A stretch of DNA of 64,000 nt, taken from Haliotis rufescens (taxonomy: Eukaryota). The notes beneath the pieces were generated by a model. It made no database searches. It worked only from the letters and a program-made list of their open reading frames with translations, and was not told where the DNA came from. A program made the translations under genes and the position numbers. Below are positions 24,735 through 64,000 of this stretch, in pieces (within the stretch, counting starts at the first letter, position 1; every line of letters begins with the position of its first letter). The DNA lies in contig NW_025964372.1 in NCBI RefSeq assembly GCF_023055435.1, positions 21,576,001 through 21,640,000 of the forward strand, in the 5' to 3' direction.

Positions 24735-24958
24735 TTTGAAATACTTGTACTACTTGGTAAACAACTAGTTACACATGTTTTCAACAAACATTGAAAGACA
24801 CATCCACGTAAAGTATATTAGAATAATGAACATATTGTTTCTGATTATACTCAGATTGTTTATTTATTCATGTATTAATGATAGTGAAACAATACTTGGA
24901 GTTTTTAAAATTTATTTGGTTAGTCATTTTAAAGAAATAGTTTAAACTTGATAGTACA
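24735..24958. promoter_or_regulatory. Bidirectional promoter between COQ4 and DNLZ
   Basis: Divergent ATGs about 225 bp apart. A YY1-like GCCATTTT overlaps the COQ4 start, and an NRF1-like palindrome TACGCATGCGTA lies at about 24969-24980. Confidence 0.6.
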
Positions 24959-33841: not shown

Positions 33842-33878
<37 letters not shown>

Positions 33879-35709
33879 CCACACCCACACCAACACCCAC
33901 ACCAACACCAACACCCACACAGAGCCAGGACTCTGGAAGTTCTGGAACCCTGTCCTGTCTTCTCGTGCCAGCTTCTGCAGGAGGGGTAGAACCTGTGCCA
34001 AAATCAGATCTTAGTTCTGGCTATCGCTAAACAAAGATCTGAGGGTATCACATTACGGGTCACGTCAGAACGACCTTTCATCCGACCAATCAAAGCGTCG
34101 CTTACCAGATCATGAAAGTAACAGTCGGAATGTGTTTTCTAATCATGCAAAACCTCGAAAACGTTAAAACGGGGTATTCCGAACGACAGTTACGGCCCGT
34201 ACGACTGATTCCGTCAAAGTTATCGTCTGTCTCTCGCTTCCGTGGGATAAATATTTGAACGGAGGAGGCGTTGCACAGTACGCGAGAAGCACTGCCAAAC
34301 AATCGCAACCATAATTATATTAGACATTCCGGAATGTTCGTTTGCTCAGTTTTCAAAATTTCAATCGAGAACTGTGTCAACATTTTTCAAGCGTAGTCTG
34401 AAATGGAAGTAGCTAGGCTGCTTTCTCATTGGCTTATCGACTTCTTGTCCTTCGTTTCAGCTTTCTGTCAAAGTTCACGAAAGGTCGTTCTGACGCGACT
34501 CGTAATGGGATGCCTTCAGATCTTTGTTTAGCGGCAGCGAAAACTTAGATCTGATTTTAATGAGAAGTCTTCTTCCCTTCGCTTAGGTCTCCACATACCG
34601 TCTGTACTGGAATTCAGATGACATGTTGCTGCCGTAAGCACTGTGTTGTTTGTGCTGCGAATACCAGTAAAACGCCCCCAAATTAGGTCCTATTCCGGTT
34701 TCGGTTTAGACTTGTTGACATCGTGACATTCGTCACCACTCGCCCCTTTCCGTAACCTGCAAGAAGACGAGTCGCTATTCGGCTTGTGTCGGAATAACAC
34801 GAGTTGGTAACGAATGGACATCGTGATAAACTCGTGGAGATCGTGTCATGTCGTGGGAAGCTCGTAACTAACTCGTACACAACCCGTATTCAACTAGTCC
34901 AGTCCATCATCGGTGTGATTTCGTAGTGACATCGCACTGACATCGTAGTAAACTCGTGTTATATTCGTAGTAAGCTCGTGGTGTGCTCGTATGACTCCGT
35001 GTTAGTGTCGAGTGTCGACATCGCAATATACACATCATACACATCGTAATATATCGCGGTCAACATCGCGAAAGCGGGCTGGTAGCCAGGCGTGCCTGAA
35101 TCTTTGGTCGAGTGATCGCATCCTTGATTCGGTCTGATTATAATTCTTGGTTTGTCATCACTTAAACAGGAAACGTCAACCATTCGGACCATCTTCACCG
35201 GATTCCTATTGACGTAAAGTTATCAATCTGTGACGTCATGAACAATAGATGACCTCATATCGTACTTTCTAAAAAACATTCGGCACCTCATTTCGCTTAA
35301 ACTAATCAATCAGACGCAAATAGTTAAATGCACGTGCAGATATCGGAAAGTTGTTTCAGTCCCTCCTTCTAACCTATATTCTCTAAATATTCCCCGGGAC
35401 GGTCGGGTAGCCTAGTGTTTAAAGCGTTCGCTCGTCACGCCGAACACCCGGGTTCGATTCCCGACATGGGTACAATGTGTAAAACCCATTTCTGGTGTCC
35501 CCTGCCGTGATATTGCTCGAACATTGCTAAAAGCGGCATAAAACCATACTGACTCACTAGATATTCTCCAAATATTTATTTCAGACAGCTTCTACGTCAA
35601 AGGTTCAGCCGGCCTAGGTCTTTGCAGTATCTTCGTCAAAGGAGAAGGGTATGAACAACAGTCAACCAAGTGTGAGAACGCCAATTACTTTGTTTGCCAG
35701 AAAAGTTGA
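28732..35709 (+). CDS. Secreted miniature C-type lectin domain protein, 4 exons, 115 aa
   Basis: Exons 28732-28777 (signal [16 protein letters not shown]), 30610-30689 ([26 protein letters not shown]), 32311-32407 ([32 protein letters not shown]) and 35585-35709 ([41 protein letters not shown]). GT-AG, 348 nt, six Cys, AATAAA at 35717. Confidence 0.85.
28995..29222 (-). mobile_element. SINE family B
   Basis: Reverse copy ending CCGGATCTTCACGGGTC. Confidence 0.8.
29380..29880 (+). mobile_element. Family C SINE with a (CA)n microsatellite, followed by the 3' part of a family B SINE
   Basis: Consensus matches; (CA)n at about 29632-29668. Confidence 0.75.
31555..31822 (+). mobile_element. SINE family D
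   Basis: Near-identical to 44582-44865. Confidence 0.85.
32575..32967. repeat. 30-bp minisatellite (TAGACACGATGTGAGTACGATGT[C/T]TTCACGA), about 13 copies
   Basis: Directly visible. Confidence 0.95.
33172..33935. repeat. Compound repeat: CAGAGCCAGGACCAGTCC...GAAGAGATTA modules alternating with (CACACC)n hexamers
   Basis: Five modules separated by variable hexamer tracts; these give the low-complexity TH, PT and GV ORFs in the track. Confidence 0.9.
33999..34565. mobile_element. Second copy of the AAAATCAGATCT-TIR MITE, nested in the composite transposon
   Basis: Both TIRs are homologous to 12672-13177. Confidence 0.8.
35396..35558 (+). mobile_element. SINE family A
   Basis: TSD ATATTCTC(T/C)AAATATT. 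Confidence 0.85.
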
Positions 35710-41839: not shown

Positions 41840-41846
41840 TATAAAA
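41840..41846 (+). promoter_or_regulatory. TATA box of FTL-CTL gene A
   Basis: TATAAAA about 50 bp upstream of the ATG at 41892. Confidence 0.55.
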
Positions 41847-41891: not shown

Positions 41892-44800
41892 ATGATCCAG
41901 TACCTTCTCATCGCAGCCCTGGTTGGCAGTGGTAAGTATAAACACGTCCTACTTTATTGTAAAGATCAACAACTTTTTACAAGTTAACAACGACTCTCAA
42001 ATCATAACATGTCTAACTGAGATTACCCCTGTGGTCTAGTGGTAGAGCGTCCGCCCGGAGAGCGGAAGGTCCGGGGTTCGAGCCGCGTCATACCAAAAGA
42101 CGTCAAAAGGTGGTACCTGTTGTTACCCTGTCTGGCGCTCGGAATTGGGGGGCTAAAACAAGGACTGGTCGACATGGAGTCAGTATACTGTGTCTGAGTG
42201 GGGTATTCATGTTAAACTGCGGCATGTTATCCCAGTGGGCTAGCACTATAAATCGACATCAATCTGGACTAGTACAAGCAGACATTAACTCACACACACG
42301 TGCATGCACGTCGCGACATAAGTGCAATAATCTTGGACGCGACGTTAAACCCAATTTCACCTCTCCTCATCTGAGCTGAAGTAGAGAATTGCTTGCTTCA
42401 AAAAGGAATAATAAGTACGTTTTGTTACACATAATATATTCAGGGATCCTATTGGTATAGCCATCGTATTTGTTAAAGTGCTATCCTGTTACACATAGTG
42501 ACTTGTTTTCATCGGGAGGTCCATTTTCCAGATTACAGGGGTCCTTACCAACAAGGTTTCACTATGAGCTTTTCTGGCACTTTGTTTCAGCCACCGCAAC
42601 AAACTTCGCCCTTGGTAAACCAGCCACGACCAGCAGCACATGGGTTTCGTATAACGGCTCCCTCGCCACTGACGGCAACACCGACGGTGACTGGAAATCC
42701 GAGTCCTGCTTCGCTACAAACATACAAGACTCAGATCCTTGGTGGATGGTGGATCTGGAGCAGGTTATCACCGTCGACAATGTCGTTATCTACAACAGAG
42801 CAGACTGCTGCGGTACGTTCATTGCAACCACAGAGAAAATGACTGAATGTCGTTATACGCCGCAGCCAGCAAAATTGCAACAATATTAGAGTGGCTTCAA
42901 TTTTTCCTTTGCTATTTCTATTCTTTTACCAATCAGTGCTAACTTACCCCGGCCTTCCGTTTTCCCATTGTTCCTTTGCCAACTACCAGACAGTGATAAT
43001 TTAGTCCTGGCTTCCAGGTGTGCATAACTATCAGCGCTAATTACTGTAGAGTGTTGGCTTCCATTGTCTATTGCTAATCACCTATCGTTGTTATCTTATT
43101 ACCTTTGTTGTACTTACGGGTACATATATGTGCTCTCTGGCTCATAGCATTCGACAGCTGCTCGAACGTATATAAACAGAGCAGCCAAGGATAAAAATGA
43201 AATCAAAACAATATATTAAAATAGAAATCATATCAATGCAAAAACAGAAATTATGTGAACACCGAACTCACAATAGATATGTGAACCCTTCTCACACACA
43301 GGAGTCCCAAAGAGGGACAGGTCAGCCGAAATTGCCTTGGCAGAAGGCGACCTCTTAAAAACCTAATGCAACAACAACAACATCATAGCATTCATTCACC
43401 TGATGAAGGAGTAAGCATATACTCCGAAACGTTGTGATCCTCATAATAAAGAAGTTGACATCCATAAATTATCTTCCTTATATTAGAGTGGCTGCAATTA
43501 ATGAAGTCTTCCCCCGTTAAAGTTCCGGGTTGGAATTGGTCTTCAGCATCCCATGCTTGTCGCGTCTTACACGTATCTGCTGCTGGACCGTTCTTATCCG
43601 TAATCCCCAACGGGTATATTCTCAGCTAGAATTCCCATTTCATTTGACGTTAAATGATTATGATTAATGTTATGATTTAGCGTAAAATGCGTAAAAAGAC
43701 ATTAATTACCCTCAAACGTGGCCCATTGGCTACTTTCCCGCATTCTCTGACACTCCGCGGTTAGGCTGTCATAATAATGTTCAAAGAGCCTTTTATTCAT
43801 ATATCTTCTTCAGGTGAGAGGCTTCAGAGGCTGACTGTAACGGTGTACACTGAGAACCCTGACGTCGTTAGTGACGCTGAAGGAACGCCGTGTGCGACGT
43901 TCGAGGGGCCAGCTGATGACGAAGATGTCGTAACCCTTCAGTGCGAGGGCGAAGTTAGCGGAAGATATATACGCATCACTAAGCAGAAGAGCTTGGAGAA
44001 CGAGTTGGACCTTCTTAGTTTCTGTGAAGTGGAAGTAACAGGTATGAGTATAGGGCACGCTTCCGATCCACACAGCGTTAGTAGTGCTGTGATAGTCTAA
44101 ATACAACTTCTTATTTACGACTGTCGTAAGGCTACGAACGCTTTGTGGATGGGGATCCAGAATTAGACAATTGTCGACGTCATTACAAAATATCTTCATT
44201 TCAAATGACGTTATTATTGGTGAAAACGTCAACAATGATGTAAGGCGAGTGAAATTATGATTCTTCCACGACGTTTTCGAATCCGGCATTCTGATTGGTC
44301 TCCCAGGGGTGTCGAATATACGTTCGAAACTTCTCAATTGAAAAAAACCCAGTAGCCTAACTTCCTAATCATAATTATAACTTTGTCCACACAAACTCGT
44401 GTTTACCGAATAAATGCATCTTTCAATCAATTTACATCTTCTTAAAATAACCCATGATATCAAATCAGAAGATTACTATGAACTCAGTGTAACATTGTTT
44501 GTTCTAAAACCCTGCAATCCTGACGATCACTTACAGAAACGTCTACCTGTTCCCGTGTTATGGGGGGGGGGGGGGGGGGGGGGGGGGCACGGGTGGCCCA
44601 GTCGTCTAAGGCGCCGCGATTCGCTGTGCAGAGTTGCGTCCCCCTGGGCACGCCAGAAACCTATGATTGTGGGTTCGAATCCCGGTTCGCCCCGATTATG
44701 TTTCTAGGTTTGTCAGCACCATACCCGTGCTCGTGGGTTTCACCGAAGTGGTAACCGTCTGAGACCTGCATCACTTCGGGCTTTCCTCCCACATTAAGCC

Positions 44801-47445
44801 GACAACCGCGATATAACTGTAATACTGTTAAAAGCGGCGTTAAACCAAACTCACCCACTCACTCCCGTGTTATGGGTTTCGGGCGCTTAAGAAACATTCG
44901 TAGTTTTCTCGCTAATCACAAGAACTGTAAAACATCTCACTCACTTATAAAAGACGACTTTATTTTAAAAACCTGCCATCATCTGAGTATATTTACAATG
45001 TCTGTGTGACGGCACACCCGCTGTTATAGCGCGAGTAATCGCGATAAACATGGCCGTCCGATACCGCATGATGCCCGAAACTGTATGATCCGACGATACA
45101 TATTCAAAACTCCATACCCAGGACTCGTTTATCCGGAATACGGTTAATCGGGTCGACGTCACAAAGAACAGTTCTGGGAGTAAAGGGATTTCACTGTACA
45201 ACAAAAACCGAATGAACTATATTATCACGACAGTATCGCAGAATGACATTCATTCCTTCGATAACGTTTATCACCATTTAGGGGAATAAGATATATGCCT
45301 TCTACTTTCCTAAATTACTGTTCGTTAATTATGATCAAATTAATGTCAACGGTGAAATGCTATATGATTGAGTGAATGGGTATGATTTTACGCCGCAATT
45401 ATCCAGCAAATCACGGCGGGGGACACCGACAATTGGCTCCACACATTATACCCACGTGGGTAATAGAACCCGGGCCTTCAGCGGAACGAGCGAACGCTTT
45501 AACCACTAGGCTACTTCGCCGCCCCTTCAACATGGAGGGGTGGAGATCTATTCATAATGTGTATACTTATATTGCACTGTACTCAATACACAAGGTGCAT
45601 GTTCAAAGCCCTAAAATTGTTTTCCCGGTCAATAGATCAGTGTGAACTCGTTTCTCGTTCTCAGCTCCCTTGGAAGTATACAAGCTATTGAAGTTAACCT
45701 GCCACATAACCATCTCATCCTACCCATTCACTGCTGGGTGAACAGATCTATAATTGAATACTTTGTATAGAAACCCTGAATATATGTTTTCTATTTCGTG
45801 CTAAAATCATTTCTGTACAATTCCAGCCAAGTGTCCTTCCGGGTTTTCCCCAATAGACACCGAGTGCCTGAGGTTTGTCCCGAGTTTCGCCACATTCGCC
45901 GAGGCCCTGGTAAGTGTTCAAGGACATAAGCAAATCTCTCGAGTTCCGTTTCGAAGGCGAGCTTGAAACAAGTAAATATTCGACACAAAATCGCCCTGGG
46001 ACCTTTGGTATCACAAGTTAGATGCAGGAAGACCTTATGAACCGGATTCTCTTGACTCCATATACGTTAAAGGCGATGCAACTCTATGGTCCCTGCAGAA
46101 TCCGTATCCACCCGGGCCCATTTGCACAAAACTGTCTCAGGTCTAAGACGATCGTAACTCCCATACTTTAACAAAGGCTTACGATAGTCGTAGCGCTTAG
46201 ATCGTTGTACTTTGGGTGGCCCAGTCGTCTTGGATGCCGTCGTCGTTAATGACGCAGCAACTGCGTCAGCAATATTTATTGTTGGCACCCCATGTGCTTC
46301 GTTTTCACCATCTCTTTGAGTGATTGTCGTAATTGTTATCAATATTAATTTCAGTTATCAATACATATATATCACCCTATTATCATATGATATATATTAC
46401 TTTTGCCTTGAGTATATGCAGAAACAGTTATCGTCCTGAAGACGGGTTTTTCTGGATTAACGAGGTTCCGTTGTAGTCAAGGTAAACCTTTGTTGCAGAC
46501 GAACTGCGAGAGCATGCACTCACACCTGCTGATGATTAAGACGGAGAGCCTTGACAACGCCGTCAGAAACTATATGGTTGGAAACAAACTCAATGGTAAG
46601 TTTGTTTTATTACTACTAAGGTAGTTTGGCTTTGAATAGTTTACAAATATATTTTCACTGTTATGCGTCATTTATCGTGCCTTTTAAACGATTTTTTCAA
46701 AGGATTGTAAGTAAAGTTAAGGTTTTGTCCGGTACTTAACCGGTTTGGATATTTGAACACTAAAAGTACAACCCGGTGCCCTTGGTCGTCAGAGTCTGAC
46801 AGATCAAGTGGTTTAGATTAATTAATTTCTGTAACTAATCCTGTTTGCGGAGAGATGGCGCTGTACGTAAGTCATCATTCAGACAAACGGGTTTGGGGCT
46901 ATTATTTACATTATATGTTTCGAGAGAGGTTCCCAACGGTAAAGGTCCAGAGTACAGGGTTTCTTGATTAACGGGGTCGGGACTTACTGGTTAGCTCTAT
47001 CCATCCAATAAGAACCAATCACATAAACGCCATATTATCCTAATCCCAGAGAGGGCGTTTTGTTAGCCGGGTGGTGTTCGCTCGTCAGGCCAAATGCCCA
47101 GGTTCGATTCCTACATAAGCACACCATTTCAAGTATTCCTCGTCGTGATATTGCTGGAACAAAGCGAAAAAATACATATAAAACGCGTCGTAAAAACACA
47201 CTCACTCGTTGCTTTCAGACACATACTACGTGGGCGCCATGGACCTGGAGGAGACTGGAGTGTTTCAGTGGGTGGATGGTTCCACCGTCGACGTTCCCTG
47301 GAGAAGCAAGAACGCTGGCATCGGTGCCGCTGCAGTAGAAGAAATAAAGAATGCAGCATGTGGCTACTTGAACGGAGCCACCGGAGCTTGGCAAGCCATG
47401 TACTGTAGTGAACCTAACTTCTTCATCTGTCAGAGACCACTTTAG
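41892..47445 (+). CDS. Secreted F-type lectin (fucolectin/FTP) + C-type lectin chimera A, 6 exons, 298 aa
   Basis: Exons 41892-41931 (signal), 42591-42812, 43814-44041, 45827-45909, 46499-46595, 47219-47445; GT-AG, 897 nt. FTL motifs NFALGKPA, ATDGN, PWWMVDL, YNRADCCGERL, SFCEVEV. CTL motifs CPSGF...C...TFAEALTNC, FQWVDGS, CSEPNFFICQ. Confidence 0.92.
42025..42370 (+). mobile_element. SINE family C
   Basis: Near-consensus copy in intron 1 of chimera A. Confidence 0.85.
42883..43499 (+). mobile_element. Penelope pseudo-LTR or retrozyme-like unit, interrupted by a 241-bp insertion
   Basis: 20-nt direct repeat ATATTAGAGTGGCTNCAATT at 42883 and 43480; hammerhead core followed by AATAAA; inner insertion bounded by TCATAGCATTC (43142-43152 and 43383-43393) with a (CAA)n tail. 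Confidence 0.6.
43396..43437 (+). ncRNA. Minimal type-I hammerhead ribozyme motif
   Basis: TCAC-CTGATGA-A-GGAGTA-agcata-TACTCC-GAAA-CGTT-GTGA: intact CUGAUGA and GAAA cores, 6-bp stem II, palindromic stem III (AACGTT), GUU cleavage triplet, stem I TCAC/GTGA. Confidence 0.65.
44562..44865 (+). mobile_element. SINE family D with a 5' poly-G run
   Basis: TSD TCCCGTGTTATGGG on both sides; about 26 G at the head. Confidence 0.85.
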
Positions 47446-48649
47446 TGATTATTTCTTGGGGATTAAAATTGTGGAAAAGTTCATTGATGAGTTTGTATTC
47501 ATTCATTGTCAGTTGAAAATATTTTTTTCCAATCTCATTAAAATCAGATCTTAGTTCTCGCTCCCGCTAAACAAAGATCTGAGGACATACCATTACGGGT
47601 CACGTCAGAACGATCTTTAAAACGGCCAATCAGAGCGGCGCTTACCGGATCGAGAAAGTGACAGTCGGAATGTGTTTTCTGACCATGCAACGTCGAAAAG
47701 GTGAACACGGGGTATTCCGAATGACAGACGTGCGAAGTTCCGGGGTAGATGTGGTCTTCAGCAACCCATGCTTGTCGTATGAGACAAAACGATGGCGATT
47801 TGACTTGTCTTATCAGATAGTTGATGTCCGCTATAGGCTGAGCTATTAAGTGCCATGTCCACCATCCACCCTCACACATGAAGATCCTTGTTAAAATTGG
47901 TCTTCAGCAACCGATGCTTTGCGTAAGTGGCTACTAACGGGATCGGGTGGCCAGGCCCTCTGACGTGGTTGAAACATGTCATCGTATCCCAATAACGTGG
48001 ATCGATGCTGTCAATCACTGGATTGTCTGGTCCAGACTCGATTACTTACAAACCGCCATCATGTAACTGGGATATTGCTCATTGCGGAGTGAAACAAAAC
48101 ACCCACTTAGAGGGTCCAGAAATTTAGTTGTTCGAGATAACGCAGATACATCTTTGAAAATGTGTGGTGACTGCATAGTTTTCAGAAATAAAGTCTTGGC
48201 TACAGTTTTGACCACATATGACTCATGAGGCCCAGTCGTGTAAGGCGCCGCAATTCGCTGTGCAGAGTTATGTCCCTTATGTCCCTTGTGAGTTCGAATC
48301 TTGGCTCGCCCCGGGTATGTTTCTAGGTTTGTCAGCACCATACCCGTGCTCGTCGGTTTCACCAAACTGGTAAACGACTGAGACCCGATTCCAACTCGCT
48401 CACTACCTGTTGGAAAGGTTCGCCGCCTCTTTCTGATTTAACAAGACACAATCGAGAAGACATTGTTGGGAAATTGGTTCCACGTTGTTAACATGAAGAA
48501 CCCCATGTTGTCATGCAGGTCCTTGAACAGCCAATCTAAAAGCGATTTTAGCATTTGTGCAAATAGCACATTCAGCAACATCATTCATAACATCTGTTGG
48601 TTTGATTTACATTGACATGATATCCCAAAGATAACATCTGACGGTAAAG

Positions 48650-48814
48650 TGAGTGAGTGAGTATGGTTTAACGTCGCTTTTAGCAATATTCCAGCAATAT
48701 CACGACGGGGGACACCAGAAATGGGCTTCACACATTGTACCCATGTCGGGAATCGAACCCGGGTCTTCGGCGTGATGAGCGAACGCTTTAACCACTAGGC
48801 TACCCGACCGCCCC
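48650..48814 (-). mobile_element. SINE family A, young copy
   Basis: Perfect 13-bp TSD TCTGACGGTAAAG. Confidence 0.9.
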
Positions 48815-49508
48815 TCTGACGGTAAAGACATGGAGGCGCCAATGAACATTCCGCATGTAGAAACTGTTATATTTGGGATAAAACTTTCTTTGTGAAGTAC
48901 AAGTTATAGTACTTCAATGGGTTATTCGAACCCACACTCTCAGAGTGAGACACCTAATCAGCACACAAAGTCAGTGTTCTCACCCACACAGCCACCGAGG
49001 CTTCCACAAAATAAAAATCCGACAACTGCTTTGTCTAGATCCCGTGCTTGGTGTAACCCTCTGACAAGGGTAAATTGGCACGGCTCCCATGGCCGAAAGC
49101 TATGAACACACAAAGCCATTTAGAAAGTCATATGTGTCAAATGTTATATTTGGGATAACACTTTCTTAGTAAAAGTACTAGAATCTGTACTTAACTCAGA
49201 AAGTGTTATATCCAAATATAACATTTGTTACATTTGACCGCTCTCTAAATGGCATTGTTTTGTCATTCAGCATGAACATGGGAAACTGAAGTTGTTGAAA
49301 ACCCTCCTGTGCACACGCTTCAAGGAGTTGGACTGAAAAGGGTTTGCTAAATGACACTTCATGAAAACATTTATGGAAATATGGCAAACATACTCATAGC
49401 CTGGATGAATTCAGTGACTATTTGATAGTGATTTATAAACACGTGCCCATGATATAGTCGGACTCGTGCAATACACACGGATTTTAGCAGAGATTTCTTA
49501 TAAATATA

Positions 49509-51042
49509 TACCCACACGCAAAAGAAACGCAAGTGGTTTTAAGCAAATAGGTAACAAACACGGAACCCTAAATTGATACGAGTTTTAGCATGTAGTGAAG
49601 CCTGATGGTGTTATCAATATTTTTGGTTGCATTTTGGAAGTAAAACGCAACATAAAAAAACGAATCGCCAAAAACGCACGATTTCAATGAATATGTGGGT
49701 ATCATGCACCCATTTCTCGCGAAATTGAAAATGCACGAACTGTCACGAACTGTAGTGGGTATAAAACTGTTGCCGATTCTTTGACCTACCACTCCTTGGT
49801 CAACAATGCCACGCCTAACTCAAATTCAGAGAAACCAGGCTATCGGACGTTTGGAAGCTGGAGAGTCTGTTCAAGATGTTGCCCGTCATTTCAACGTAAA
49901 CATAACCACAATTTACCGTCTCCTGCATCGATAAAATGCTACACAGACCACAGATGACCTTCCTCGGAGCGGTCGTCCTAGGGTCACCACACCTCGACAA
50001 GATCGGCAGGTTACCCGTCAACACCAGCAACATCTGTTCCTAACTGCAAGTTAAAGTGCTCGACAGACCATAGGAACACATAATCAACACATTAGCCGGG
50101 ACACTGTGAACCGACGTCTCTGTTCAAACAACCTCAGATGTGGCCGACCAGCACGTCGTCCTGTTCTCCAACCACGGCATCGACAAGCATGACTTCAGTG
50201 GGCACAGGGTCATCACAATTGGCGTCATCCCGAGTGGAAGCTGACATCTTCTCTGATGAAAGTCGCTATTTTGTCTCCCATGCAAACGGACGAGTCAGAA
50301 TTTGGAGGCGTCGAGGTGATCGTTTCGCTGACAGAAACGTTGTGGAAAGGGATCCATGGGGTGGACCTAGCGTCATGATATAGGCAGGGATTGGACTTAA
50401 TGCGAGACTTGGACCCATGTGCTTTCTGAATGTTGGTCAAGCTCGGTGACACGGCGTCACTGCTCAGCGGTATATCGACCAAGTGATCAGACCCCACGTT
50501 GTTCCATTTTTTGCACATCAACAACACAATTTCCAGCAGGACAACGCTCGTCCCCATGTTGCCAGAGCTACCATGGTCTTTCTGCAACAACACAAACTCC
50601 GTGTTCTACCGTGGCTAGCCCTCAGCCCTGATCTGAACCCAATCGAACACTTGTGGGATGAGGTTCAAGGGCGTCTGCACAATGTGCGCCCAGTCCCTAC
50701 AACTGCCGATGATCTACGCACAGCTGCTCTGGATGTGTGCAGGGGGATCCCTAGGGCCTTCACAAATCGTCTGATCCACTCAATGTACAGGAGATGTGTG
50801 GCAGTGATCAATGCTAATGGTGGTCACACAAGGTATTGATTGACATTTTGGGTATTGACCCGAAACTGTGTAAGCCCTTAACATTTGAAAAAAACAATTA
50901 TGCCATCTACCTTTTAATCCATTAAACTGTCTTCAGTCAAATATTTGTCAATCTTGCCCTATTAGTATTTCTTGTCTTTACTGTTGAAAATAAATAACAT
51001 GTATACTGCATACTCGACTTGCGTTTCTTTTGCGTGTGAGTA
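49509..51042 (+). mobile_element. Full-length Tc1/mariner (DD34E) transposon
   Basis: TIRs TAC(C/T)CACACGCAAAAGAAACGCAAGT at both ends, flanked by TA. Confidence 0.92.
49806..50839 (+). pseudogene. Tc1 transposase pseudogene
   Basis: MPRLTQIQRNQAIGRLEAG...RSGRPRVTT...FSDESR...QQDNARPH...SPDLNPIEHLW (D-x34-E)...GGHTRY*, with several in-frame stops and a frameshift. Confidence 0.9.
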
Positions 51043-51538
51043 TAGAAAGTGTTTTGTCGGTTTTAATTGTATGGAATCAGCATGGACGATTTGTCTGCTC
51101 CCCATGTGGTCTTAGATACACATTTCAGTAGATTTATTATTTTGTTACAACTAGTAGCTGTGCAATGTGATTGGGCTTTGTAAGCCGTTGGTGAAAATAG
51201 ACACCCAGAAATTTGAATTCAGATACAAAAATAATTGGATTAGGCCCAAGCTTGAATTAAATATCTTGAGGGATGTCTCTTCTTGTAAAGAACATAGCTA
51301 CTGACTTTGCATGGGAGATTTTGCAACCTCACTTCAGACACCACATATTGGTTACATCCGGGTATTTATGTATGAAATCTACAATGTGTGGAAGATTGCC
51401 GAATCTAATCAAAGGCTCCCCCAGCAACAAGCTGGGATGCATCAGAAGGCCAGATATCCAGTCATATGTCATTGCCACTTTCATGAATCCTCGGATTTGC
51501 AGTGTTCAGAAAAACACATCGTTTTCGTTAGATATCAC

Positions 51539-51830
51539 CATGCCGTGTCTTAGTGAAAATGACATGTTTAGCCAAGGATTGTTTGAATCCTGTATCTCGC
51601 GGCTCTAATCACGTCCATTCATGTCCACAGCAACACCGTTATGACACCTTCGGCGACGTCAACAACATCAGAGATCGTCCCCGTAGTGGCCACTCACCCA
51701 TGATAACCCTCACCAAGAAATATGGATTTGAACCGCGCATCTTCGACACAGGTTCCAGACAGCAACTTGCACAGCCATGGCAACGAGACGCATCTGCAAG
51801 GACAGTCCCATGGCGTCTATGCATCTATGC
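51539..51830 (+). mobile_element. Degraded Tc1-like transposase fragment
   Basis: MPCLSEND start and RYDTFGDVNNIRDRPRSG remnants. Confidence 0.45.
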
Positions 51831-53377
51831 ATCACCAAGGAGTAGCCAATCCCGGAACATTCGGAGAAAGGAGCAGGGTGACACGAACGGTAGAGTGGCC
51901 TAAGGCTCCCGCTATAATTTCTATACAGGTTCTACTACACCAAACCAGCCTTCAGTGCAGATCGAGAGATATCTGCAGGCTGTGATTGGAGGATATTCTG
52001 TAAGATTTTTATCTTTTTCAAATGTACATCCATCCAGTTATTAAAACTGACCATGTTTTTCTATATTTAGTACTGTCTTTTTCAACATGATGACTTATGC
52101 TGAATGTGACCACAGCTATTTTCAAGTAGGTGACATTTGGTGCGAAACTGGGGGTGGTACTTAGCTTCCGGTACTCGGAAAAGGAGCTGGCTAAGCTAGT
52201 CATTTTTATTTTTTTTATTCCTGCTCTAAAGCCAAACTGTGCACACACGTACAGGTAATAGCTGTTGAATGCTTAGTTATTTTTTTTTAAAAATATAACG
52301 TTACTATAGAAGTCTATGGGAAAACACTTGGTTGTGTGTAACCTATAGTAAATGCAACCCGACGCGTTGAAAATAGTTGCTGCTGAATTCCTTTCACGGC
52401 GTCATATTTTGCACGCAGGGTAATCCTCCCCCACCCACCCCATGCTTCCTGTATGTAGGTTTGTGTGTTTCTGTGTCTATTCATATATGTATGTACCTGG
52501 GGTTCTACATGATGTCTCTAGCTATCAACTATCATTTTTCTATGTTTTATGTATTTTGTTCATGCATTCAGTCTTATTGTTTATGTAACTGTTTATATAT
52601 CATATATCAAATTATATTTCATTTAATTAAAATATGAATCTGGATTTGAAAGAAAGAATCAATTGTAAATATATATTTCTACTATTACTATATGTATTGC
52701 AAACAAATTTTATATTTGGGATTCTTTGTACAGATTCTAGTTTTTCTTGGGTTCAGTCCCATCCGGGATACATGTATTTCCTTTTTTAACATTTATAAAT
52801 TGCATTTGTTTTTTTCTGTTAATTTAAAATTTACATCCACATTAATGTTTCATAATGCAACTTCGCATACAGTTTTAGAAATCGAAGTTCACTACGCATC
52901 GCACTAAATGAACGGTCATCGTGTGAATCAAGCCTAATTCGTCACGAACCTCAAAGGTCTTTCTGGTTGTGATTTTGGATCCGAAATACGACCCAGTTAA
53001 GGAACTATAAGTGTCAGAGTTGGACACCATCGATCGATACGCATAGGCTGGGAGACTTAACATTACACGTGACGTAAATATGTTCCAGTGGAATTAACTT
53101 TCTGCAAAGGACACAAACAAACCCCATTGAAGTAGAGCAAGGTGATATAAGCCATAAAGCAGCGCTTGGAATGAACGCTCGATATCTACCTCTAAGCTGA
53201 CACGTCGTGATTGTATCGCGAGGACTCAAAAATGAAACCAAAGACAATGTTTTCAGCGGATGTATTTATTAAACAGCAAACAAATTTTCATACACAGGTG
53301 AACACAGGTGAGGCATGAAATTCACCTTTGCGCACGATATATGTTAAGTCCGCGACAGTGTACACATTTTCCACAAA

Positions 53378-56300
53378 TCACTGTTGACAGATAAAGAAGT
53401 TAGGCTCGCTGCAAGGCATTGCTTCCCAATTGTATGTGCTGGTGGTGTTGAGATAGCCACACCCAGACTCCTGCGTCTGCCCCGGGAGCAGAGTGGCGCG
53501 GGGGCCGGCTGGGTGCCACGGGGATACAACCAAGCTGCCGTCAACCCAGTGGTACACATCGTCGTCCTCCATGTCGCTGGCGCCAACGTAGTAGTTGTGG
53601 CCTGAAAGTAAGTGGCGTTATAGATGAGGTATTAAATAACAAATATACGTGGAGTTGGGTTTTACGCCGCTTTGAACAGTATTTCATTTATATCACCGTA
53701 AAACCTGAATTAATGAGGGTCATAAACCTTTACTCCTTTGGTGAAAGCTACGAGAAATTTGTTCAAATGCATGTTGATATTTTGATTGTTCAGTTACATA
53801 AATATAATTTGCTTTGACTTTCTTTTAAACTCGACCCGTCCAGTTGTTCACAGAGGTAGTGCATGTCTTTTGGACTTAACGCTGCACTCAGCAATATTCT
53901 AGCTATATGACGGCGGTCTGGAAATATCGAGTCTAGACCACACAATCCAGTGGTTGACATCATCAACAGCGATCCACGCAATTGGGATACGATGACATGC
54001 TTCAACCAAGTCAGCGAACTTGACCACTCGATCCCGTTAGTAGACAAGCATAGTCGCCTTTTACGGCAAGCACGGGTTGCTGAAGACCTATTCTACCCCG
54101 GATCTTCACAGGTCTAGAGGTAGTGTACACATATAGTCTTAATAAAGTGAGACAGCTTGAGAGTATTTAACTGGATTACCTCCCTTTTCTAACTATAGCT
54201 TGTTTGTTTTTTGTTTTTGTTTGTTCTTTGGTTAACGCCGCACTCAGCACTATTCCAGCTAGACGGCGGTCTATAAATATTCGAGTCTAGACCAGACATT
54301 CCTGTGATTGACATCAGGAACATCGATCTACGCAATTGGGATATTTTGACATGCAGCAACCAATTGCCAGTCACTGAGACTCACCACCACTCGATCCCGT
54401 TAGTCGCCTCTTACGACAAGCAAGGGTTGCTGACTTCCAAATCTAACCCGGATCTTCACGGGTACGAACCATAACTAACAACAATTGTGCCTCTGCACCG
54501 GGTTCCATAAATTTGAAGTCTGTTTATGCCATATTTGAACTTTTTTGCACGAATTATTTCATGTGTTTACCGCCCAGTTCGTTGCCGGCGATGTAGGCTG
54601 CGATGGCGTTGTCGAAGTCCTCAGTCTTGATCATAAGGAGGTTGGAGTCCAGCATCTCGCAGTAGGTCTAAAACAGTGAGTGAGTGACTGAGTGAAGGTG
54701 GTATTTATGTTGAGTGGTATTTATGATGAGTCAGCCACAATCATTGGACCATGGTATGTTTTGTTAATACCTCACGTGTTTGTTTACACTACGTTCCTCA
54801 ATCATCCGTGATTGCTTACGGCCTTGTCGGGCCTCGTCGGGCCTTGTACTTCTCGGTCTCCAATTCCGTGTCTAACCCTACGTTTTGTTTATTTTTGCGT
54901 TTTTTTCTTAAATAATACCCAACATCAATATAATAATTGTTTATCCAGTGGATCTTAGTCTGTCCCACAGTTCCCCAACTATATTGTTTCCCCTTCCGCC
55001 CAGCCCTAACAGCAATGCAATAACCCTAAACGAAGCAAGTCTAGATTTCATCAGGTCTCTGTATCCCGTCTCGCTGGGGCTCCTTTCAATTTAAAAGTAG
55101 TTACCTGGTTCAAATTATATATTTTCACAGATTCAACGTTAGCCTACCCGGACCTATTCGCTTCCATAGCCTCGTTTTAGAAGCGAGTGACGCCACCCGT
55201 TTCATGCCTCCTTATCCTATCAGTAACTCCATCCTATTGATTGGACGGCTCTGTTGCGGTAGCGAAATGCTCATAAAATAATGGCGATATTATGCACTGG
55301 AAAATTGAGGATGCAACAACCTTCATTATTAATTGTACTTTTATGATCCGTGTAATTGTAACCACGTCATTTATTTCCAGCCCTGGTCGTGGATAACTTA
55401 CGATAGCCTCCGCGAAAGTTGCGTAGGTGGTGGAGAAGGCCAGGCACCGATCTTCAACATTGTTGAACCCCCTTGGACACACTGCAACATGAAGTGAGGG
55501 TTGTTTGTTTGTTTGTTGTAATGCCACAATCAGCAATATTCCAGCAGTATCGAGTCTGGACCAGACATCATAAACATCGACCTACGAAACTGGAATACGA
55601 TGGTATCATCTACCTTCAAGTCATCGAGCCTGACCACCCGGACCCGTTAGTCGTCTTTTATTTCAACACTAAAAACAAATATTCCGAAATTGTCTATCGC
55701 GGCTGAACGTACAATCGAGGAATGATTACAAACTATCAGCCATTACGAGCACCTGATCAGTCGGCTATTTCAACATGGAGTGAGTGAGTATTGTTGTACG
55801 CCGCTTTTAGCAATATCGAGGCCGGGGACACCGGAAATGGGCTTCACACATTGTACCCATGTGGGGAATCTAACCCGGGTCTTCGGCGTGACGAGCGAAC
55901 ACTTTAACCACTCGGCTACTTCGCCGCCCCTTCAACATGGAGGGGTGGAGATCTATTCATAATGTCTATACTTATATTGCACTGTACTCAATACACAAGG
56001 TGCAAGCCCTAGCATTGTTATCCCGGTCAGTAGATCAGTGTGAATTCGTTTCTCGTTCTCAGCTCCCTGGGAAGTATACAAGCTATCGAAATTAACCTGC
56101 CACATTACCATCTTATCCTACCCATTCACTGCTGGGTGAACAGAGGTACATTTCGAGCAAAGTCACTTGCCTAAGGAGACACCACATGTGCTTCTGTTTG
56201 TTTGTTATTTAACGCCGCACTCCGCAATATGACGGCGGTCTGTAAATAATCGAGTCTGGACCAGACAATCCAGTGATTGACATGAGCATCGATCCACGCA

Positions 56301-59300
56301 ATTGGGAAACGATGGCATGCATCAACCAAGTCAGCGAACCTGATCACAAGATCGCGTTAGGCGTCTCTTACGACAATCATGGGTTGCTAAAGACCAATTC
56401 AAACCTGGATCTTCACGGGTATCGATGGAATGCAGGTCCCGGTAGTCGCCTCTTACGACAAACATAGTCGCCTTTTAGGGCAAGCATGGCTTGCTGAAGA
56501 CCTATTCTACCCCGGAATCTTCACGGGTCACATGTGCCTCTGTGGGGCAGGATCGAAGCTCAACACACTCAGGAGACAAGCTGCCGTACGCGGTCACCAA
56601 TCCAACTATTCTCCGCGACCGACGTTGCTTAAGTTCACCTCATTTGTGACCTGTGCGCTGTGCACAGGACCACGTGGCGCCTACCCATTCTGTCCCGGAT
56701 ACCCCAGGTTTCACTCTACACATAATAGATCACCCTATTGCATGCTGTTGTCATGCGCCGGATATTGTCATCACTACTGTAGATTTAGCACGGCGACCTG
56801 TAAATAATCACGTCTGGAACAGGGAAACCAGTGACTGAAATGATGAGCAACTATCCACGCCACGTTGAAATGCAACGAGCCACAGGGCCTGACCACCAGG
56901 CTATATCCTTCTTCGACCAGTAGGTGATAATGGGCGTGCTCAGCTCGGCATCTCCTTGATCAATAGATCTGCAACTTCTATCCCTTACCATCAACATATC
57001 CAACGTTTCTGCCTTACCTCTGGGCTCCTTGGCTTCAATTGTGACCTCACAGAAGCTCATAAGTTCACCGTCCTTGACAATGCGGACGAACTGGCCTTTA
57101 ACCCCCGCTGGGCAGTTGATGACCTTCACAGCGCCATTTGGTTGAGGTTCAGTGACCTCGCCGCACAGCTGACCTTCTGTGGAGGTGTCATTTCCGGGAT
57201 TCTCAGAGTATACTCGGATCTCCAGATTATTTAACCTTGACCCTTAACAGAATGAACAGATATTATGATGACGTTGAATTGATCTTGTAAAACAGTATCA
57301 TCACTTGCAAACCTTTGCTTTTCTTTTGCTGTATAATTAACGCTAAAAACATCCAAATTGAGTATAGACTTCGAGGTGTTTTGGCACAAAACATATCTTT
57401 ATAAATTATGCTAAGATTTGAAAAAAATATAAGGGATATGTAAATGCAATAATTCTTTCGCTGGGGATTAAGGATAAAGAAATCAATTCTGAGTAGCTTT
57501 ACCTCCTATCAATGCAGACATCATATATGTACTGGACATAAAGTGTCAAGCCTAACCGGAGAGTGAGTGTGATTTTATGAAGCTTTTAACACTATTCCAC
57601 CAATGTCACTGTGAGGAACACACGAAATGGGCTCCAAAGAATTCACGCATGTTGGGAGTTGAACCAAGGCCTCCTACGGTGGCCCATAAGGGACATGGAG
57701 TCAATATTTTGATATTTCACTTACTTTCATCGTAACTTTTTGCAAATTAACACAATTTGTCATACAAATATGTGATAAGTCATGTATAAGTACAACCGAG
57801 AACATGGAAAATGTACTCTCAAGTAGCTATTGAATCGCTGAAATGTGAAGCGAAAATGTCAAAAACTAAAACGAAAATGTCAGAAACAAAAACGAAAAGG
57901 TCAAAAACAAAAGCGAAAATGTCAAAAACAACACCGGGGTAGAAATATTATCACCGCGGTGGAAATAGTTTTCTGCATTTTCATTTTAGTTTTTGACATT
58001 TTCGCTTTTGTTTTTTACCTTTTCGTTTTTGTTTTGGACATTTTCATTTTAGTTTTTGACATTTTCGCTACACTTTTCAGCGATTCAATATCTTCTTTAT
58101 ACATGATTTATCACATATTTGTATGACAAATCGTGTTAATTTGCAAAAGGTTACGATAACGGTAAGTGAAATATCAAAATATTGAATAATAACAGACTCC
58201 ATGTCCCTTATGGGCCACCGTACCTTCCGCGTGACGAGCTAACGCTTTAACAACCAGCCTATAACATCGCCACTTTGGGGAGTGGAGGGTTGTCTTAGTA
58301 TAGTCTGGTATAGAATTGGTTCAGACCATAGGCGAATGGTGAAATACGACTAAAATATGTTGGCGTTTTGTGAAATGCCTAAGTTAACATTTCAGTAATT
58401 TTACACATTGGCTGATTTTACACATTGGCTGTCATATATAAGATCATAGGTGCAATACTCGCTATGCTCGACTGTCCCAGACATCGCCACTAACGCTTAC
58501 CACAGCAGTCGGCTCTGTTGTAGATGGTCACTGATGCGACAGGGAACGCTTGACCAAGGTCCACCATCCACCAGGGTTCATCGTCGTCGTCGGCGGAGAG
58601 GAAACAAGATTTCCCCTCATCAAAGTTGCCGTTTGTGTCTCCGTCAACAGCCCGACCTCCATTGAAGACTGACCAATAGCTGCTCTGGGTCACTGACCTG
58701 TTCAGGGCAAGGTTTGTAGCGGAGCTTCCTGGAAATCATGGCAAATATTTCTTAATGGGTAAGATAGGTTGTACGCCACATACAGCACTATTCTTGCATT
58801 ATCAGGGCGGAGTGAGTGTGTTGAATTTAACGCCGCCCTGAACAGTATTTCTGTTATATCACAGCGTGTCAGCTTGATGTGGGAGGAAAGCCCGGAGTGA
58901 TGCTGGTCTCAAACGTTTACCACTCTGGTGAAAGCCACGAGCATGGATATGGTGCTGACAAACCTAGAAATATAACCGGAACCACGATTCGAACCCACGA
59001 TCTTACGATGCTTGCGTGCCCAAGGGACACAACTCTGCACAGCCAATTGCGGTGCCTTAACCTTAACCAATGATCATAGGAGTCGGGCTTGTCTGATGAA
59101 AGCGACTCTGCCAATTAAGGCTCACCGGATTCTAACTTGCTTTGTTGCAAGAAGGTTGTGAGAGGTTGAACAGTTTCAGGTGCCCGTTTCACGAAGCGAT
59201 CTTAGGGGATCCTAACATTGAAAAAACAAGTGAAAACTGTTCTTTTGTGTCTTTTAGGCACAAGTGACCAGTGTTAATGAATAAAACACGGTAGAGAAAT

Positions 59301-60235
59301 ATACTCTTGTTAAACAGATAGCAACATTGACCTGCGGCTGTCGTAATGCTTTTAGAATTCGTCCATGGTGTAGTGGATAGAGCGTCTGCCTGGAGAGCGG
59401 AAGGTTGGTGGTTCGATCCCCGGACGCGTCATACAAAAAGACGTCGAAGCTAGTGAGGTGAGGTGAAATGGGGTTTAACGTCGCGTCCAAGATTATTGCA
59501 CTTATATAGCGACGTGCATGCACGTGTATGTGTGTGTGTGGCTGCTTGTACTAGTCCGGACTGATGCCGATTTATAGTGCTAGCTCACTGAGATACCATG
59601 CCGCAGTTTAACATGAATACCCCACTCAGACACAGTATACTGACTCCGAGCCGACCAGTCCTTGTTTTAGCCCCTTAATGCCGAGCGCCAGACAGGGTAA
59701 AAACAAGTACAATCTTTTAACGTCTTTTTGTATGACGCGGCCCGGGATCGAACCCTGGACCTTCCGCTCTAGGGCGGACGCTCTACCACAAGACCACGGA
59801 GGCGGTCCTCGAAGCTAGTACTTGCTGTTACCCACATGGGTGCCGTTGTACAATACAATCTTAGCGCTACGACTGTCGTAAGTCTGTGTTATGGTACGCG
59901 ATTTACGATCACCTCAGCGCTAAGATCGCTTTGTACAACCTCACCCTGGCCCTCGGCATTAAAGGGTTAAAACAAGAAGGACTGGTCGGCTCGGAGGCAG
60001 TATATTGTGTTTGAGTGGGGTATCCTTGTCAAACATGGTATCTCAGTTTTCTAGTCTGGATTAGTGCACACAGCCACGCACGGGCGCCATATATTCGTGC
60101 AATAACCACCTCACCTCACGTAACGCTTAAACCTCTTTGTGAAACGGGACCCTGCTTGGCCTCAAATTGTGGCCATGGTTAGAAATACATACCTCCAGCT
60201 ATACAAAAAGCTGCTACTGCGATGAAGAATATCAT
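53378..60235 (-). CDS. Secreted F-type lectin + C-type lectin chimera B, 6 exons, 298 aa
   Basis: Exons (-): 60235-60193 (signal MIFFIAVAAFCIAGG), 58728-58501, 57242-57018, 55481-55402, 54667-54571, 53601-53378; 897 nt in frame. Motifs NLALNRSV, AVDGD, PWWMVDL, YNRADCCGSRL, SFCEV; CPRGF...TFAEAITYC, YHWVDGS, CSEPNFFICQQ*. TATAAG at about 60286 and AATAAA at 53270-53265. Confidence 0.92.
53870..54465 (-). mobile_element. Two family B SINE copies
   Basis: Reverse copies at about 53870-54115 and 54200-54465, each ending GGATCTTCAC. Confidence 0.8.
55780..55930 (-). mobile_element. SINE family A
   Basis: TSD TTCAACATGGAG. Confidence 0.85.
57677..58220. mobile_element. Foldback MITE (Tc1/mariner-pogo type, TA TSD), inserted in a family A SINE
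   Basis: TA|CGGTGGCCCATAAGGGACATGGAGTC...GACTCCATGTCCCTTATGGGCCACCG|TA. The element is nearly wholly palindromic with inner AAAATGTCAAAAAC arrays. Confidence 0.88.
58810..59060 (-). mobile_element. SINE family D
   Basis: Reverse consensus match. Confidence 0.8.
59360..60120 (+). mobile_element. Nested family C SINEs plus a small MITE
   Basis: The outer (+) copy is split by an inner (-) copy at about 59455-59808 with TSD TCGAAGCTAGT, and by a MITE at 59838-59946. Confidence 0.85.
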
Positions 60236-61050: not shown

Positions 61051-61249
61051 ATGTTGTTTTGTGCTGCAGTTTTATCACGGCGGTCTGTCCTGTGAATAGT
61101 TGAGTCTGCACCAGGCAAACCAGATGTTGTAGCATGAACACTGACTCAGGCCGTCGATGAAACAAACTGAATATTCTCAGTACAAGCAGTTATAAAGTTA
61201 TTGCCTGAATATTCTCAATACTAATACATCTTCAATGTCTGCTTTACAC

Positions 61250-62510
61250 TTACTGCCTTGATATTTTCAATACAAATATTTACAGCTACTGCCTTGATAT
61301 TTTCAATACAAATATTTACAGCTACTGCCTTGATATTTTCAATACAAATATTTACAGCTACTGCCTTGATATTTTCAATACAAATATTTACAGCTACTGC
61401 CTTGATATTTTCAATGCCAATATTGCAGCAACTGCCTTGATATTTTCAATACCAATATTACAACTACTACCTTGATATTTTAAGTACCAATATTGCAGGT
61501 ACTTCCTTGGTATTTTCAATACCAATATTACAGCCTTGATATTTTCAGTACCAATATTGCAGGTACTTCCTTGGTATTTTCAATAGCAATATTACAGCTC
61601 CTGCCTTGATATTTTCAGTACCAATATTGCAGCTACTGCCTTGATATTTTCAGTACCACTATTGCAGCTACTGCCTCGATATTTTCAATACCAATATTAC
61701 AGCTACTGCCTTGATATTTTCAATACCAATATTGCAGCTACTGCCTTGATATTTTCAATACCAATATTGCAGCTACTGCCTTGATATTTTCAATACCAAT
61801 ATTACAGCTGCTGCCTTGATATCTCAACTCCTATATTACAAAAAATTCCTTGATATCTCAGCCCCTATATTACAGCTGCTGCCTTGATATCTCAGCTCCT
61901 ATATTACAGCTGTTGCCTTGATATCTCAGCTCCTATATTACAGTTGCTGCCTTGATATCTCAACTCCTATATTTCAAATAATTCCTTGATATATCAGCTC
62001 CTATATTACAGCTGCTGCCTTGATATCTCAGCTCCTATATTACAGCTGCTGCCTTGATATCTCAACTCCTATATTACAAATTATTCCTTGATATCTCAGC
62101 TCCTATATTACAGCTGCTGCCTTGATATCTCAGCTCCTATATTACAGCTGCTGCCTTGATATCTCAACTCCTATATTACAAATTATTCCTTGATATCTCA
62201 GCTCCTATATTACAGCTGCTGCCTTGATATCTCAGCTCCTATATTACAGCTGCTGCCTTGATATCTCAGCTCCTATATTACAGTTGCTGCCTTGATATCT
62301 CAGCTCCTTTATTACAGCTGCTGCCTTGATATCTCAGCTCCTATATTACAGCTGCTGCCTTGATATCTCAACTCCTATATTACAAATAATTCCTTGATAT
62401 CTCAGCTCCTATATTACAGCTGCTGCCTTGATATCTCAACTCCAATATTACAAATAATTCATTGATATCTCAGATCCTATATTACAGCTGCTGCCTTGAT
62501 ATCTCAATAC
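61250..62510. repeat. 34-36-bp minisatellite (GCCTTGATAT...TATTACAGCT[A/G]CT)
   Basis: Directly visible, about 36 units. Confidence 0.95.
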
Positions 62511-62895
62511 CAGCAGACGTCAGCGATAACATCAGTTTTGTTAGTGAGCGAATACAGACTTACGTCGTTTTAGAAACATAACGATATATTCTCTAATATT
62601 TGTCTCTAAGATCAAGTAGAAAGTACACAATAGATCACAGGATTGGTCTTAATTTTCTTCCCAGACAACGCCTTTATCTCATCTCATGACCCAATACAAT
62701 CTATTTTCTCACGAGTGGGGCCTTTTTCGAGGTCACTATTGACGCGTCTAAAAATAATTCAGATAACAAATATCTGTTCTCCCTGAGAAAAGAACACATT
62801 TAAAGTTTTTGTCCCCCAAAAAACACGAGAGCCTCTGATTAAAGTCGATGATGGCTGGGTGTTTTTTCTATATGCCAATACTTGGGGCTACGGAC

Positions 62896-64000
62896 GAGGT
62901 AAACAGGGTATGGTGGAAGTCTAACCTCACGGCGGTGTGTGTAAACACGAGGTAGTGGAGGTTTAACCTCTCGATGGTGTATGCAAACACGAGGTAGTGG
63001 AGGTTTAACCTCTCGATGGTGTTTGTAAACACGAGGTAGTGGAGGTTTAACCTCACGATGGTGTGTGTAAACACGAGGTAGTGGAGGTTTAACCTCACGA
63101 TGGTGTGTGTAAACACGAGGTAGAGGAAGTCTAACCTCACGGTTGTGTGTGTAAACACGAGGTAGTGGAGGTTTAACCTCACGATGGTGTGTGTAAACAC
63201 GAGGTAGAGGAAGTCTAACCTCACGTAGATGTGTGTAAACAAGAGGTAGTGGAAGTCTAACCTCACGTAGATGTGTGTAAACACGAGGTAGTGGAAGTCT
63301 AACCTCACGATGGTGTGTGTAAACACGAGGTAGTGGAGGTTTAACCTCACGGTGGTGTGTGTAAACACGAGGTAGTGGAGGTTTAACCTCACGGCGATGT
63401 GTGTAAACACGAGGTAGTGGAGGTTTAACCTCACGGTGGTGTGTGTAAACACGAGGTAGTGAAGGTTTAACCTCACGGCGGTGTGTGTAAACACGAGGTA
63501 GTGGAGGTTTAACCTCACGTAGATGTGGGTAAACACGAGGTAGTAGAAGTTTAACCTCACGGTGGTGTGTGTAAACACGAGGTAGTGGAAGTCTAACCTC
63601 ACGGTGGTGTGTGTAAACACGAGTTAGTGGAGGTTTAACCTCACGGCGATGTGTGTAAACACGAGGTAGTGGAGGTTTAACCTCACGGTGGTGTGTGTAA
63701 ACACGAGGTAGTGGAGGTTTAACCTCACGGCGGTGTGTGTAAACACGAGGTAGTGGAGGTTTAACCTCACGGCGATGTGTGTAAACACGAGGTAGTGGAG
63801 GTTTAACCTCACGATGGTGTGTGTAAACAGGGGGTAGTGGAGGTTTAACCTCACGAAGATGTGTTTAAACACGAGTTAGTTGAAGTCTAACCTCACGATG
63901 GTGTGTGTAAACAGGAGGTAGTTGAGGTTTAACCTCACGATAGTGTGTGTAAACACGAGAAAGTGGAGTTTTAACCTCACGAAGATGTGTGTAAACACGA
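62896..64000. repeat. 42-bp minisatellite (GTAAACACGAGGTAGTGGAGGTTTAACCTCACGATGGTGTGT), about 26 copies, runs off the window end
   Basis: Directly visible. Confidence 0.97.

Follow-up and report, generated by a model that had tools for sequence, protein, structure and literature searches.

A convergent pair of F-type/C-type lectin chimeras with altered canonical sugar sites in the abalone Haliotis rufescens

Gene structure and transcripts

The window analyzed here, 64,000 nucleotides of the Haliotis rufescens contig NW_025964372.1 (assembly GCF_023055435.1, positions 21,576,001 to 21,640,000), contains two convergent genes, A on the plus strand (41892–47445) and B on the minus strand (60235–53378), each encoding a two-domain lectin-like protein with altered canonical sugar sites. 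In exon models derived from this sequence, each gene has six coding exons and a coding sequence of 897 nt, corresponding to 298 amino acids. All ten introns of the pair have GT-AG borders, and the intron phases (1, 1, 1, 0, 1) are the same in A and B. The domain order is likewise shared, with a predicted signal peptide followed by an F-type lectin domain (FTLD) and a C-type lectin-like domain (CTLD). The product of A is identical to the H. rufescens RefSeq protein XP_046332856.1, including the N-terminus, and that of B to XP_046332837.2. Both proteins score above the Pfam cut-off for F5_F8_type_C and Lectin_C, and no further Pfam families were found in either, the FTLD and CTLD together occupying residues 17–298. 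The alignment of A with B has 140 identical columns out of 308, with 45–51% identity within the individual domains. An earlier interpretation of this stretch made from its letters alone (hereafter, the sequence-only reading) had described diverged, intact paralogs of exactly this number of exons, length, orientation and layout, and the splice-site models, RefSeq identity and Pfam matches all agree with it.

The predicted signal peptide is encoded by exon 1 in both A (41892–41931) and B (60193–60235). A TATA-like box is located about 50 nt upstream of each ATG (TATAAA at 41840 in A; at 60286 in B), and an AATAAA is found at 53270, downstream of the B stop codon. Both proteins are predicted to be secreted. 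Mature A contains 12 cysteines, a number compatible with six intradomain bonds.

Transcripts were sought in four sequencing runs; these were taken as RNA by guess, none being recorded as such, and precisely the modeled introns are missing from their contigs. Contigs of X1 and X4 (two of the four runs, from two studies) span all five exon joints of B, and the joint that links the FTLD to the CTLD (55481–57018) is present in three of the four. For A, a single 932-nt contig of run X1 carries exons 2, 3, 5 and 6 in this order and leaves a gap of 85 nt that fits exon 4 (45827–45909), and the last exon joint (46594–47218, GT..AG) is present in three of the four runs. No joint for A intron 1 is among those listed in the four runs. 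A and B both occur in the same runs. Six runs lack the stretch, an absence that carries no weight. Transcripts that join the F-type and C-type exons had been named beforehand as a test of the chimeric gene models, and such transcripts are what the B joint and the X1 contig of A represent.

Orthologs, duplication and selection

Orthologs of both A and B were found in H. cracherodii, H. rubra and H. asinina, giving eight proteins from four species when H. rufescens is included. The two genes appear to lie on one contig in each of the four species, their contigs being of equal length, and their locus numbers in H. rubra are consecutive. Ortholog identity is 72–79% for distant species and 93–98% for close ones. 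In a phylogenetic tree, the A orthologs cluster apart from the B orthologs, with support of 98/98 and 100/98, and since the orthologs group by gene, the duplication is older than the split of these species.

The comparison of A with B does not yield a dN/dS ratio because synonymous differences are saturated (pS 0.76; pN 0.36). Exon differences listed for run X5 comprise 8 synonymous changes over ~196 sites and 9 non-synonymous changes over ~698 sites, a pN/pS of ~0.3 that is rough, being derived from 17 exon differences in 40 listed of 68 rows. Together, these comparisons support the view that A and B have been under purifying selection, with both ortholog groups retained. We give next to no credence to the explanation that A and B are decaying lectin genes: the loss of canonical motifs speaks for it, and against it stand reading frames intact in all eight orthologs, spliced transcripts, an invariant set of core residues and pN below pS. 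The sequence-only reading had rejected decay, and on this point it holds.

Its proposal of a conserved family stands in part. The two ortholog groups in four Haliotis species bear it out; no member was found outside Haliotis, and one of the motifs concerned, WQA in the CTLD of A, is not conserved (WLS in H. rubra and H. asinina). Word-seeded searches for PF00754 and PF00059 in one protein returned only Haliotis (5 of 94 rows of one listing). Of 17,578 matches to a profile run against 1.84 billion representatives, the top 150 (at least 222 bits) are mostly tandem F-type lectin proteins; two other proteins with both domains are among these 150, with low C-type scores. Within the searches made, the family thus appears to comprise the genus Haliotis, and distant two-domain orthologs may exist below 222 bits. 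In the home genome, the C-type exons of A and B are the only strong matches.

The F-type lectin domain

Fucose binding by F-type lectins relies on the motif H-x26-R-x-D-x4-R. In the eel lectin AAA, three residues (His52, Arg79 and Arg86) grip the axial 4-OH of the fucose, whose ring is in contact with the vicinal disulfide, and calcium is structural (PMC5712786).

The first half of the FTLD is encoded by exon 2 (A, 42591–42812, contained in the X1 contig; B, 58501–58728) and the second half by exon 3 (A, 43814–44041; B, 57018–57242). There is no histidine in the FTLD of either protein; every histidine of A and B is in the CTLD. In an alignment to AAA and FBP32, the His position is occupied in A by Ala55, within the exon 2 segment S-C-F-A, and in B by Leu; among the orthologs, it is Ala in all four A proteins and Leu or Met in all four B proteins. 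The rest of the pocket is retained. Exon 2 of both genes encodes RADCC and exon 3 of A the second Arg (R90), and R83, D85, C86, C87 and R90, which form the R-x-D-x4-R/K motif with its vicinal Cys-Cys, are invariant in all eight proteins. So are D41, G42, S52, C158 and E159, which correspond to the calcium motif hhDGx with its Ser and Cys-Glu ligands (the DG in exon 2 and the FCEV in exon 3 of A). For H. rufescens, the sequence-only reading was correct that RADCCG(E/S)R and DG are kept and that His is absent (CFAT and CFLS in the two proteins).

Because the Arg pair, the Asp and the two vicinal cysteines do not vary among the eight proteins, the FTLD pocket is probably still in use, likely binding a glycan with changed specificity. 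With the His contact to the axial 4-OH lost, plain L-fucose would be bound weakly or not at all, and a modified sugar would be the more likely ligand.

We compared this pocket with other F-type domains. Among 80 abalone exons, taken from 148 other exons matched by the A exon and spread down the ranking, with six rows read by eye, 26 have His and 54 do not; the residue is Ala, Ser, Thr or Gly in 38 of these 54. This sample is biased toward the His-less query. A second abalone sample, ranked by Pfam and covering 28 other loci, has 15 domains with His, 9 without and 4 unparsed, one row having been adjusted on inspection. Among public tandem F-type lectin proteins, His is present in 314 of 634 scorable domains (97 gapped domains having been dropped), and 214 of the 634 have lost His and kept both Arg residues.

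Most of the sampled copies of the abalone F-type expansion, which comprises at least 150 exon matches with clusters on C112, C583, C594, C79, C312 and others, are His-less. A group from C583, C279 and C410 shows the reverse pattern, with His kept and the R-x-D-C-C segment lost. A His-poor abalone group (46 of 50 rows) has support of 86/80. Descent of A and B from this group is hinted at by a quick tree; in a careful tree of 73 columns, which does not separate the deep forks, the relevant fork has support of 65/82.

Next to the pocket is a loop of A, residues 144–156, encoded in exon 3 (43980–44020), which is acidic in H. rufescens and H. cracherodii and strongly basic in H. rubra and H. asinina. 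Run X5 contains charge changes in A (D122K, E149K and E151K). The loop is a candidate for positive selection.

Such charge reversals between species would be expected if A and B were gamete- or species-recognition proteins with a fast-changing surface, similar to oyster bindin, an F-type lectin; that bindins belong to this family is stated in a review (PMC12221842). We consider this very unlikely in view of the ortholog identities and the rough pN/pS given above.

The C-type lectin domain

In C-type lectins, calcium and sugar are bound through EPN or QPD together with WND. The CTLD of A and B starts in exon 4 (A, coordinates as above; B, 55402–55481), its helices are encoded by exon 5 (A, 46499–46595; B, 54571–54667), and its long loop and the stop codon are in exon 6 (A, 47219–47445; B, 53378–53601). 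The features of the fold are present, including six cysteines, the long-form disulfides and a WIGL-like strand, YYVGA. The calcium site is not. The EPN/QPD position reads NAG in A and GPR in B (NAG or NVG, with no proline in the A loop, and GPR, GPS or GPA across the orthologs); WND is replaced by WQA in A and by WEA in B; and Ala or Ser is found in place of the Glu before the third Cys. None of the five ligands of calcium site 2 is present in any of the eight proteins. The sequence-only reading had noted, rightly for H. rufescens, the lack of EPN/QPD in the long loop and the WQA and WEA replacements. An EPN in the C-terminal CSEPNF segment was rejected as a sugar motif: it is outside the long loop and reads EPS in two orthologs, and it is ascribed to chance.

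For comparison, 36 of 48 fetched abalone C-type exons were scored, drawn from the best Pfam or similarity matches and biased toward canonical domains. EPN/QPD plus WND is found in 6 of the 36, at least three ligands in 32, the proline in 35 and W-x-D in 34. Losing the exact motifs is thus ordinary in the abalone sample, and the total loss of ligands lies at its extreme. The claim that both domains have non-canonical sites is accurate as to the sites themselves, which are altered in both; as a distinguishing mark it is weakened by the frequency of FTLD His loss (54 of 80 abalone and 214 of 634 public domains) and by precedents both for the joining of F-type and C-type domains in one protein and for the degeneracy of both, as in furrowed/CG9095.

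That the changes are neutral, A and B remaining ordinary lectins for fucose and/or mannose or galactose, seems to us highly improbable. Two of the three FTLD triad residues are kept, a pattern seen in those same 214 public domains, as this explanation would have it; yet with five of five site-2 ligands lost, established C-type lectin chemistry makes calcium-dependent sugar binding very unlikely. By analogy with the calcium-independent clam lectin SPL-2, sugar binding may nevertheless have survived the loss of site 2.

The CTLD loop at the lost site is entirely different in A and B, with 1 of 20 positions common to six orthologs, but 16 of 20 are kept within B and 12 of 20 within A. The altered loop of B with the strands that follow has 28 of 34 positions conserved, compared to 57 of 86 in the rest of the CTLD (p=0.12). 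For A, the corresponding figures are 21 of 35 and 59 of 86. In neither gene is the difference significant.

Predicted structure

An AlphaFold model was obtained from a 55-row alignment (pLDDT 84, pTM 0.78), a model from a 5-sequence alignment having been discarded (pLDDT 49). The pLDDT falls below 50 only in the signal peptide and in loop 253–262, the former calcium-site loop, which is the sole low-confidence part of the mature chain. The N-terminal half of the model matches AAA (PDB: 1k12; Z 18.3, rmsd 2.8, 148 residues aligned) and also FBP32, and the C-terminal half matches the CTLD of 2ox8 (Z 18.8, rmsd 2.2, 128 aligned). The C-terminal half is matched with near-tied scores by both sugar binders and protein binders, and no solved structure spanning an FTLD and a CTLD together is among the fold matches. 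The predicted fold alone does not name the ligand.

Proposed function

We propose that A and B are secreted two-headed bridging proteins, with a retuned F-type glycan-binding end and a calcium-independent C-type end, and judge this reading of the sequences to have about an even chance of being right. The chimera could have arisen by the joining of F-type and C-type modules flanked by phase-1 introns. Lacking the calcium- and sugar-site residues, the CTLD would likely bind a protein or a glycan independently of calcium. We guess that the pair might in this way connect a host partner with a glycan, as part of surface or innate recognition.

Several points weigh against the bridging proposal. The Arg-x-Asp-Cys-Cys segment may be retained for structure, its Asp forming a salt bridge with Arg. 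Searches of the literature for His mutants of FTLDs, including lectinolysin H85A, found no mutagenesis paper on the effect of losing the His, the passages retrieved giving contacts only. The CTLD region of A fits relaxed constraint as well as it fits a new site, given the conservation figures and the WQA/WLS difference above.

There is a rival account, a real if minority possibility, by which neither domain binds sugar and A and B are secreted protein-binding adhesion or scaffold proteins like Drosophila furrowed/CG9095, possibly forming a homo- or heterodimer. The lectin domains of furrowed/CG9095 are called unlikely carbohydrate binders in two reviews (PMC5712786, PMC12221842). Protein-binding CTLDs (DNGR-1, CLEC-2, NKp65/80 and KLRG1) are among the near-tied fold matches, and the occurrence of A and B in the same runs, and apparently on one contig in four species, is what partners might show. 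On the other hand, CG9095 has reportedly lost two of the three triad residues, and A and B keep two of three; mature A has no unpaired cysteine for a covalent dimer; and the fold matches fail to separate protein binders from sugar binders.

A role in the shell matrix or in mineral binding, as for perlucin or the ovocleidin-type CTLDs, would suit the acidic character of the mature proteins (pI 4.1–4.6 in all eight orthologs) and the eggshell CTLDs among the fold matches, and F-type lectins are reported from clam shell matrix (PMC12221842). We regard it as hardly likely. Five motifs conserved in the H. rubra orthologs were looked for in the shell proteome of H. laevigata (PMC6003135), and none of its 27 supplementary files gave a match, in a text search of one species in which line breaks or substitutions could hide a match; other searches of this dataset returned only an unrelated protease; and the sole fucolectin-domain protein named in its main text is a different, multidomain protein. 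The mineral ligand that the sequence-only reading had listed among its options therefore left no trace in this proteome by motif search.

Returning to the bridging proposal, a broader version of it may be considered, speculative and in our estimation doubtful. Since 54 of the 80 abalone F-type exons are His-less and 38 of these 54 have a small residue at the 4-OH contact, abalones might have retuned the F-type pocket in much of the family, so that the Arg pair and a new cavity would read O4-substituted fucose, such as that of sulfated fucans of the algal diet or of methylated mollusc glycans. A and B would then be soluble adaptors that connect such glycans to a host partner through the calcium-independent CTLD, and might pair as an A/B heterodimer whose charged loop varies between species.

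As such, the pair adds modestly to what is known, being a soluble gastropod form, so far undescribed, of a familiar domain combination. The best lead it provides is the frequency, as yet unexplained, of F-type domains without His. These make up about two thirds of the abalone sample and half of the public sample, in a family that is defined by His-mediated fucose binding. Being small, predicted to be secreted and well-folded in the model, A and B are convenient objects for testing what a His-less F-type pocket binds. If the ligand did prove to be sulfated or methylated fucose, many mollusc proteins would have to be re-annotated, and new glycan probes might result.

Genomic surroundings

Between A and B, a decayed Tc1/mariner-type transposon is located at 49717–50974 (DDE_3 match at 50450–50836, with stops and frameshifts), and a further transposon fragment at ~51600–51800. 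Intron 1 of A (42030–42370) and of B (59480–59800) contains a copy of one high-copy SINE-like repeat; apart from it these introns show no resemblance, and the two copies are probably independent insertions. A run of 26 G (44562–44587) in A intron 3 opens a repeat copy.

Elsewhere in the window, there are an adenylate-kinase-like gene (4547–12406, minus strand; ADK match below the cut-off) and, from the Pfam search, COQ4 (20251–20550, minus strand) and a DNL zinc-finger gene (24941–25546, plus strand). These housekeeping neighbors are usable as synteny anchors; in human, AK8, COQ4 and DNLZ are linked. Long minisatellites at 1–1341, 32575–33920, 61244–62512 and 62913–64000 (periods 20, 31, 96–156, 34 and 42) generate spurious long open reading frames.

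Comparison with known systems

Searches for papers on A and B by abalone F-type lectin, fucolectin, collectin-12/CD209 and accession found none, FTLD architecture surveys and transcriptome supplements being outside their scope. Chimeras of F-type and C-type lectin domains are named in two reviews (PMC5712786, PMC12221842). The same reviews describe Drosophila furrowed/CG9095 as composed of CCP, CTLD, FTLD and transmembrane segments, so that, as in A and B, an FTLD and a CTLD, both non-canonical, are combined in one chain. In contrast, A and B are soluble proteins of 298 amino acids that have neither sushi repeats nor a membrane anchor and that keep both Arg residues. No sign of orthology to furrowed/CG9095 was seen; a furrowed cluster in the ESM Atlas at 0.79 is a lead only.

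Closest in domain pair and size are chordate two-domain proteins in ESM Atlas clusters of 68, 86 and 99 members (279–315 amino acids; feature score 0.92–0.93). The chordate protein P0102, with three FTLDs and a CTLD, shares the FTLD-to-CTLD order and the short linker of A and B, but its identity across both domains is only 27%, and it retains both His and WND. The chordate and abalone fusions may well be independent.

For the individual domains, AAA (1k12) and MsaFBP32 (3cqo) share the fold, the calcium motif, three disulfides and the Arg pair with A and B, which differ from them at the equivalent of AAA His52 (Ala in A, Leu/Met in B). In MsFTL1, too, the F-type repeat is encoded by two exons with phase-1 introns on either side (PMC12221842). 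The calcium-independent CTLDs, namely dectin-1 (2bpd), clam SPL-2 (6a7s), NK receptors and struthiocalcin/ovocleidin, resemble A and B in having no canonical calcium site 2 (Z 15–19), although their identity to A and B is 14–26% and the near-tied matches point to no one ligand. The RefSeq labels of the pair, 'collectin-12-like' and 'CD209 antigen-like protein 2', reflect CTLD similarity, the only feature in common, whereas A and B have no collagen, neck repeats or type II membrane anchor; the labels ignore the FTLD and mislead. By sequence and predicted fold, then, A and B combine true F-type and C-type lectin folds in a form distinct from canonical fucolectins, calcium-dependent carbohydrate-recognition domains, furrowed orthologs, collectin-12 and CD209.

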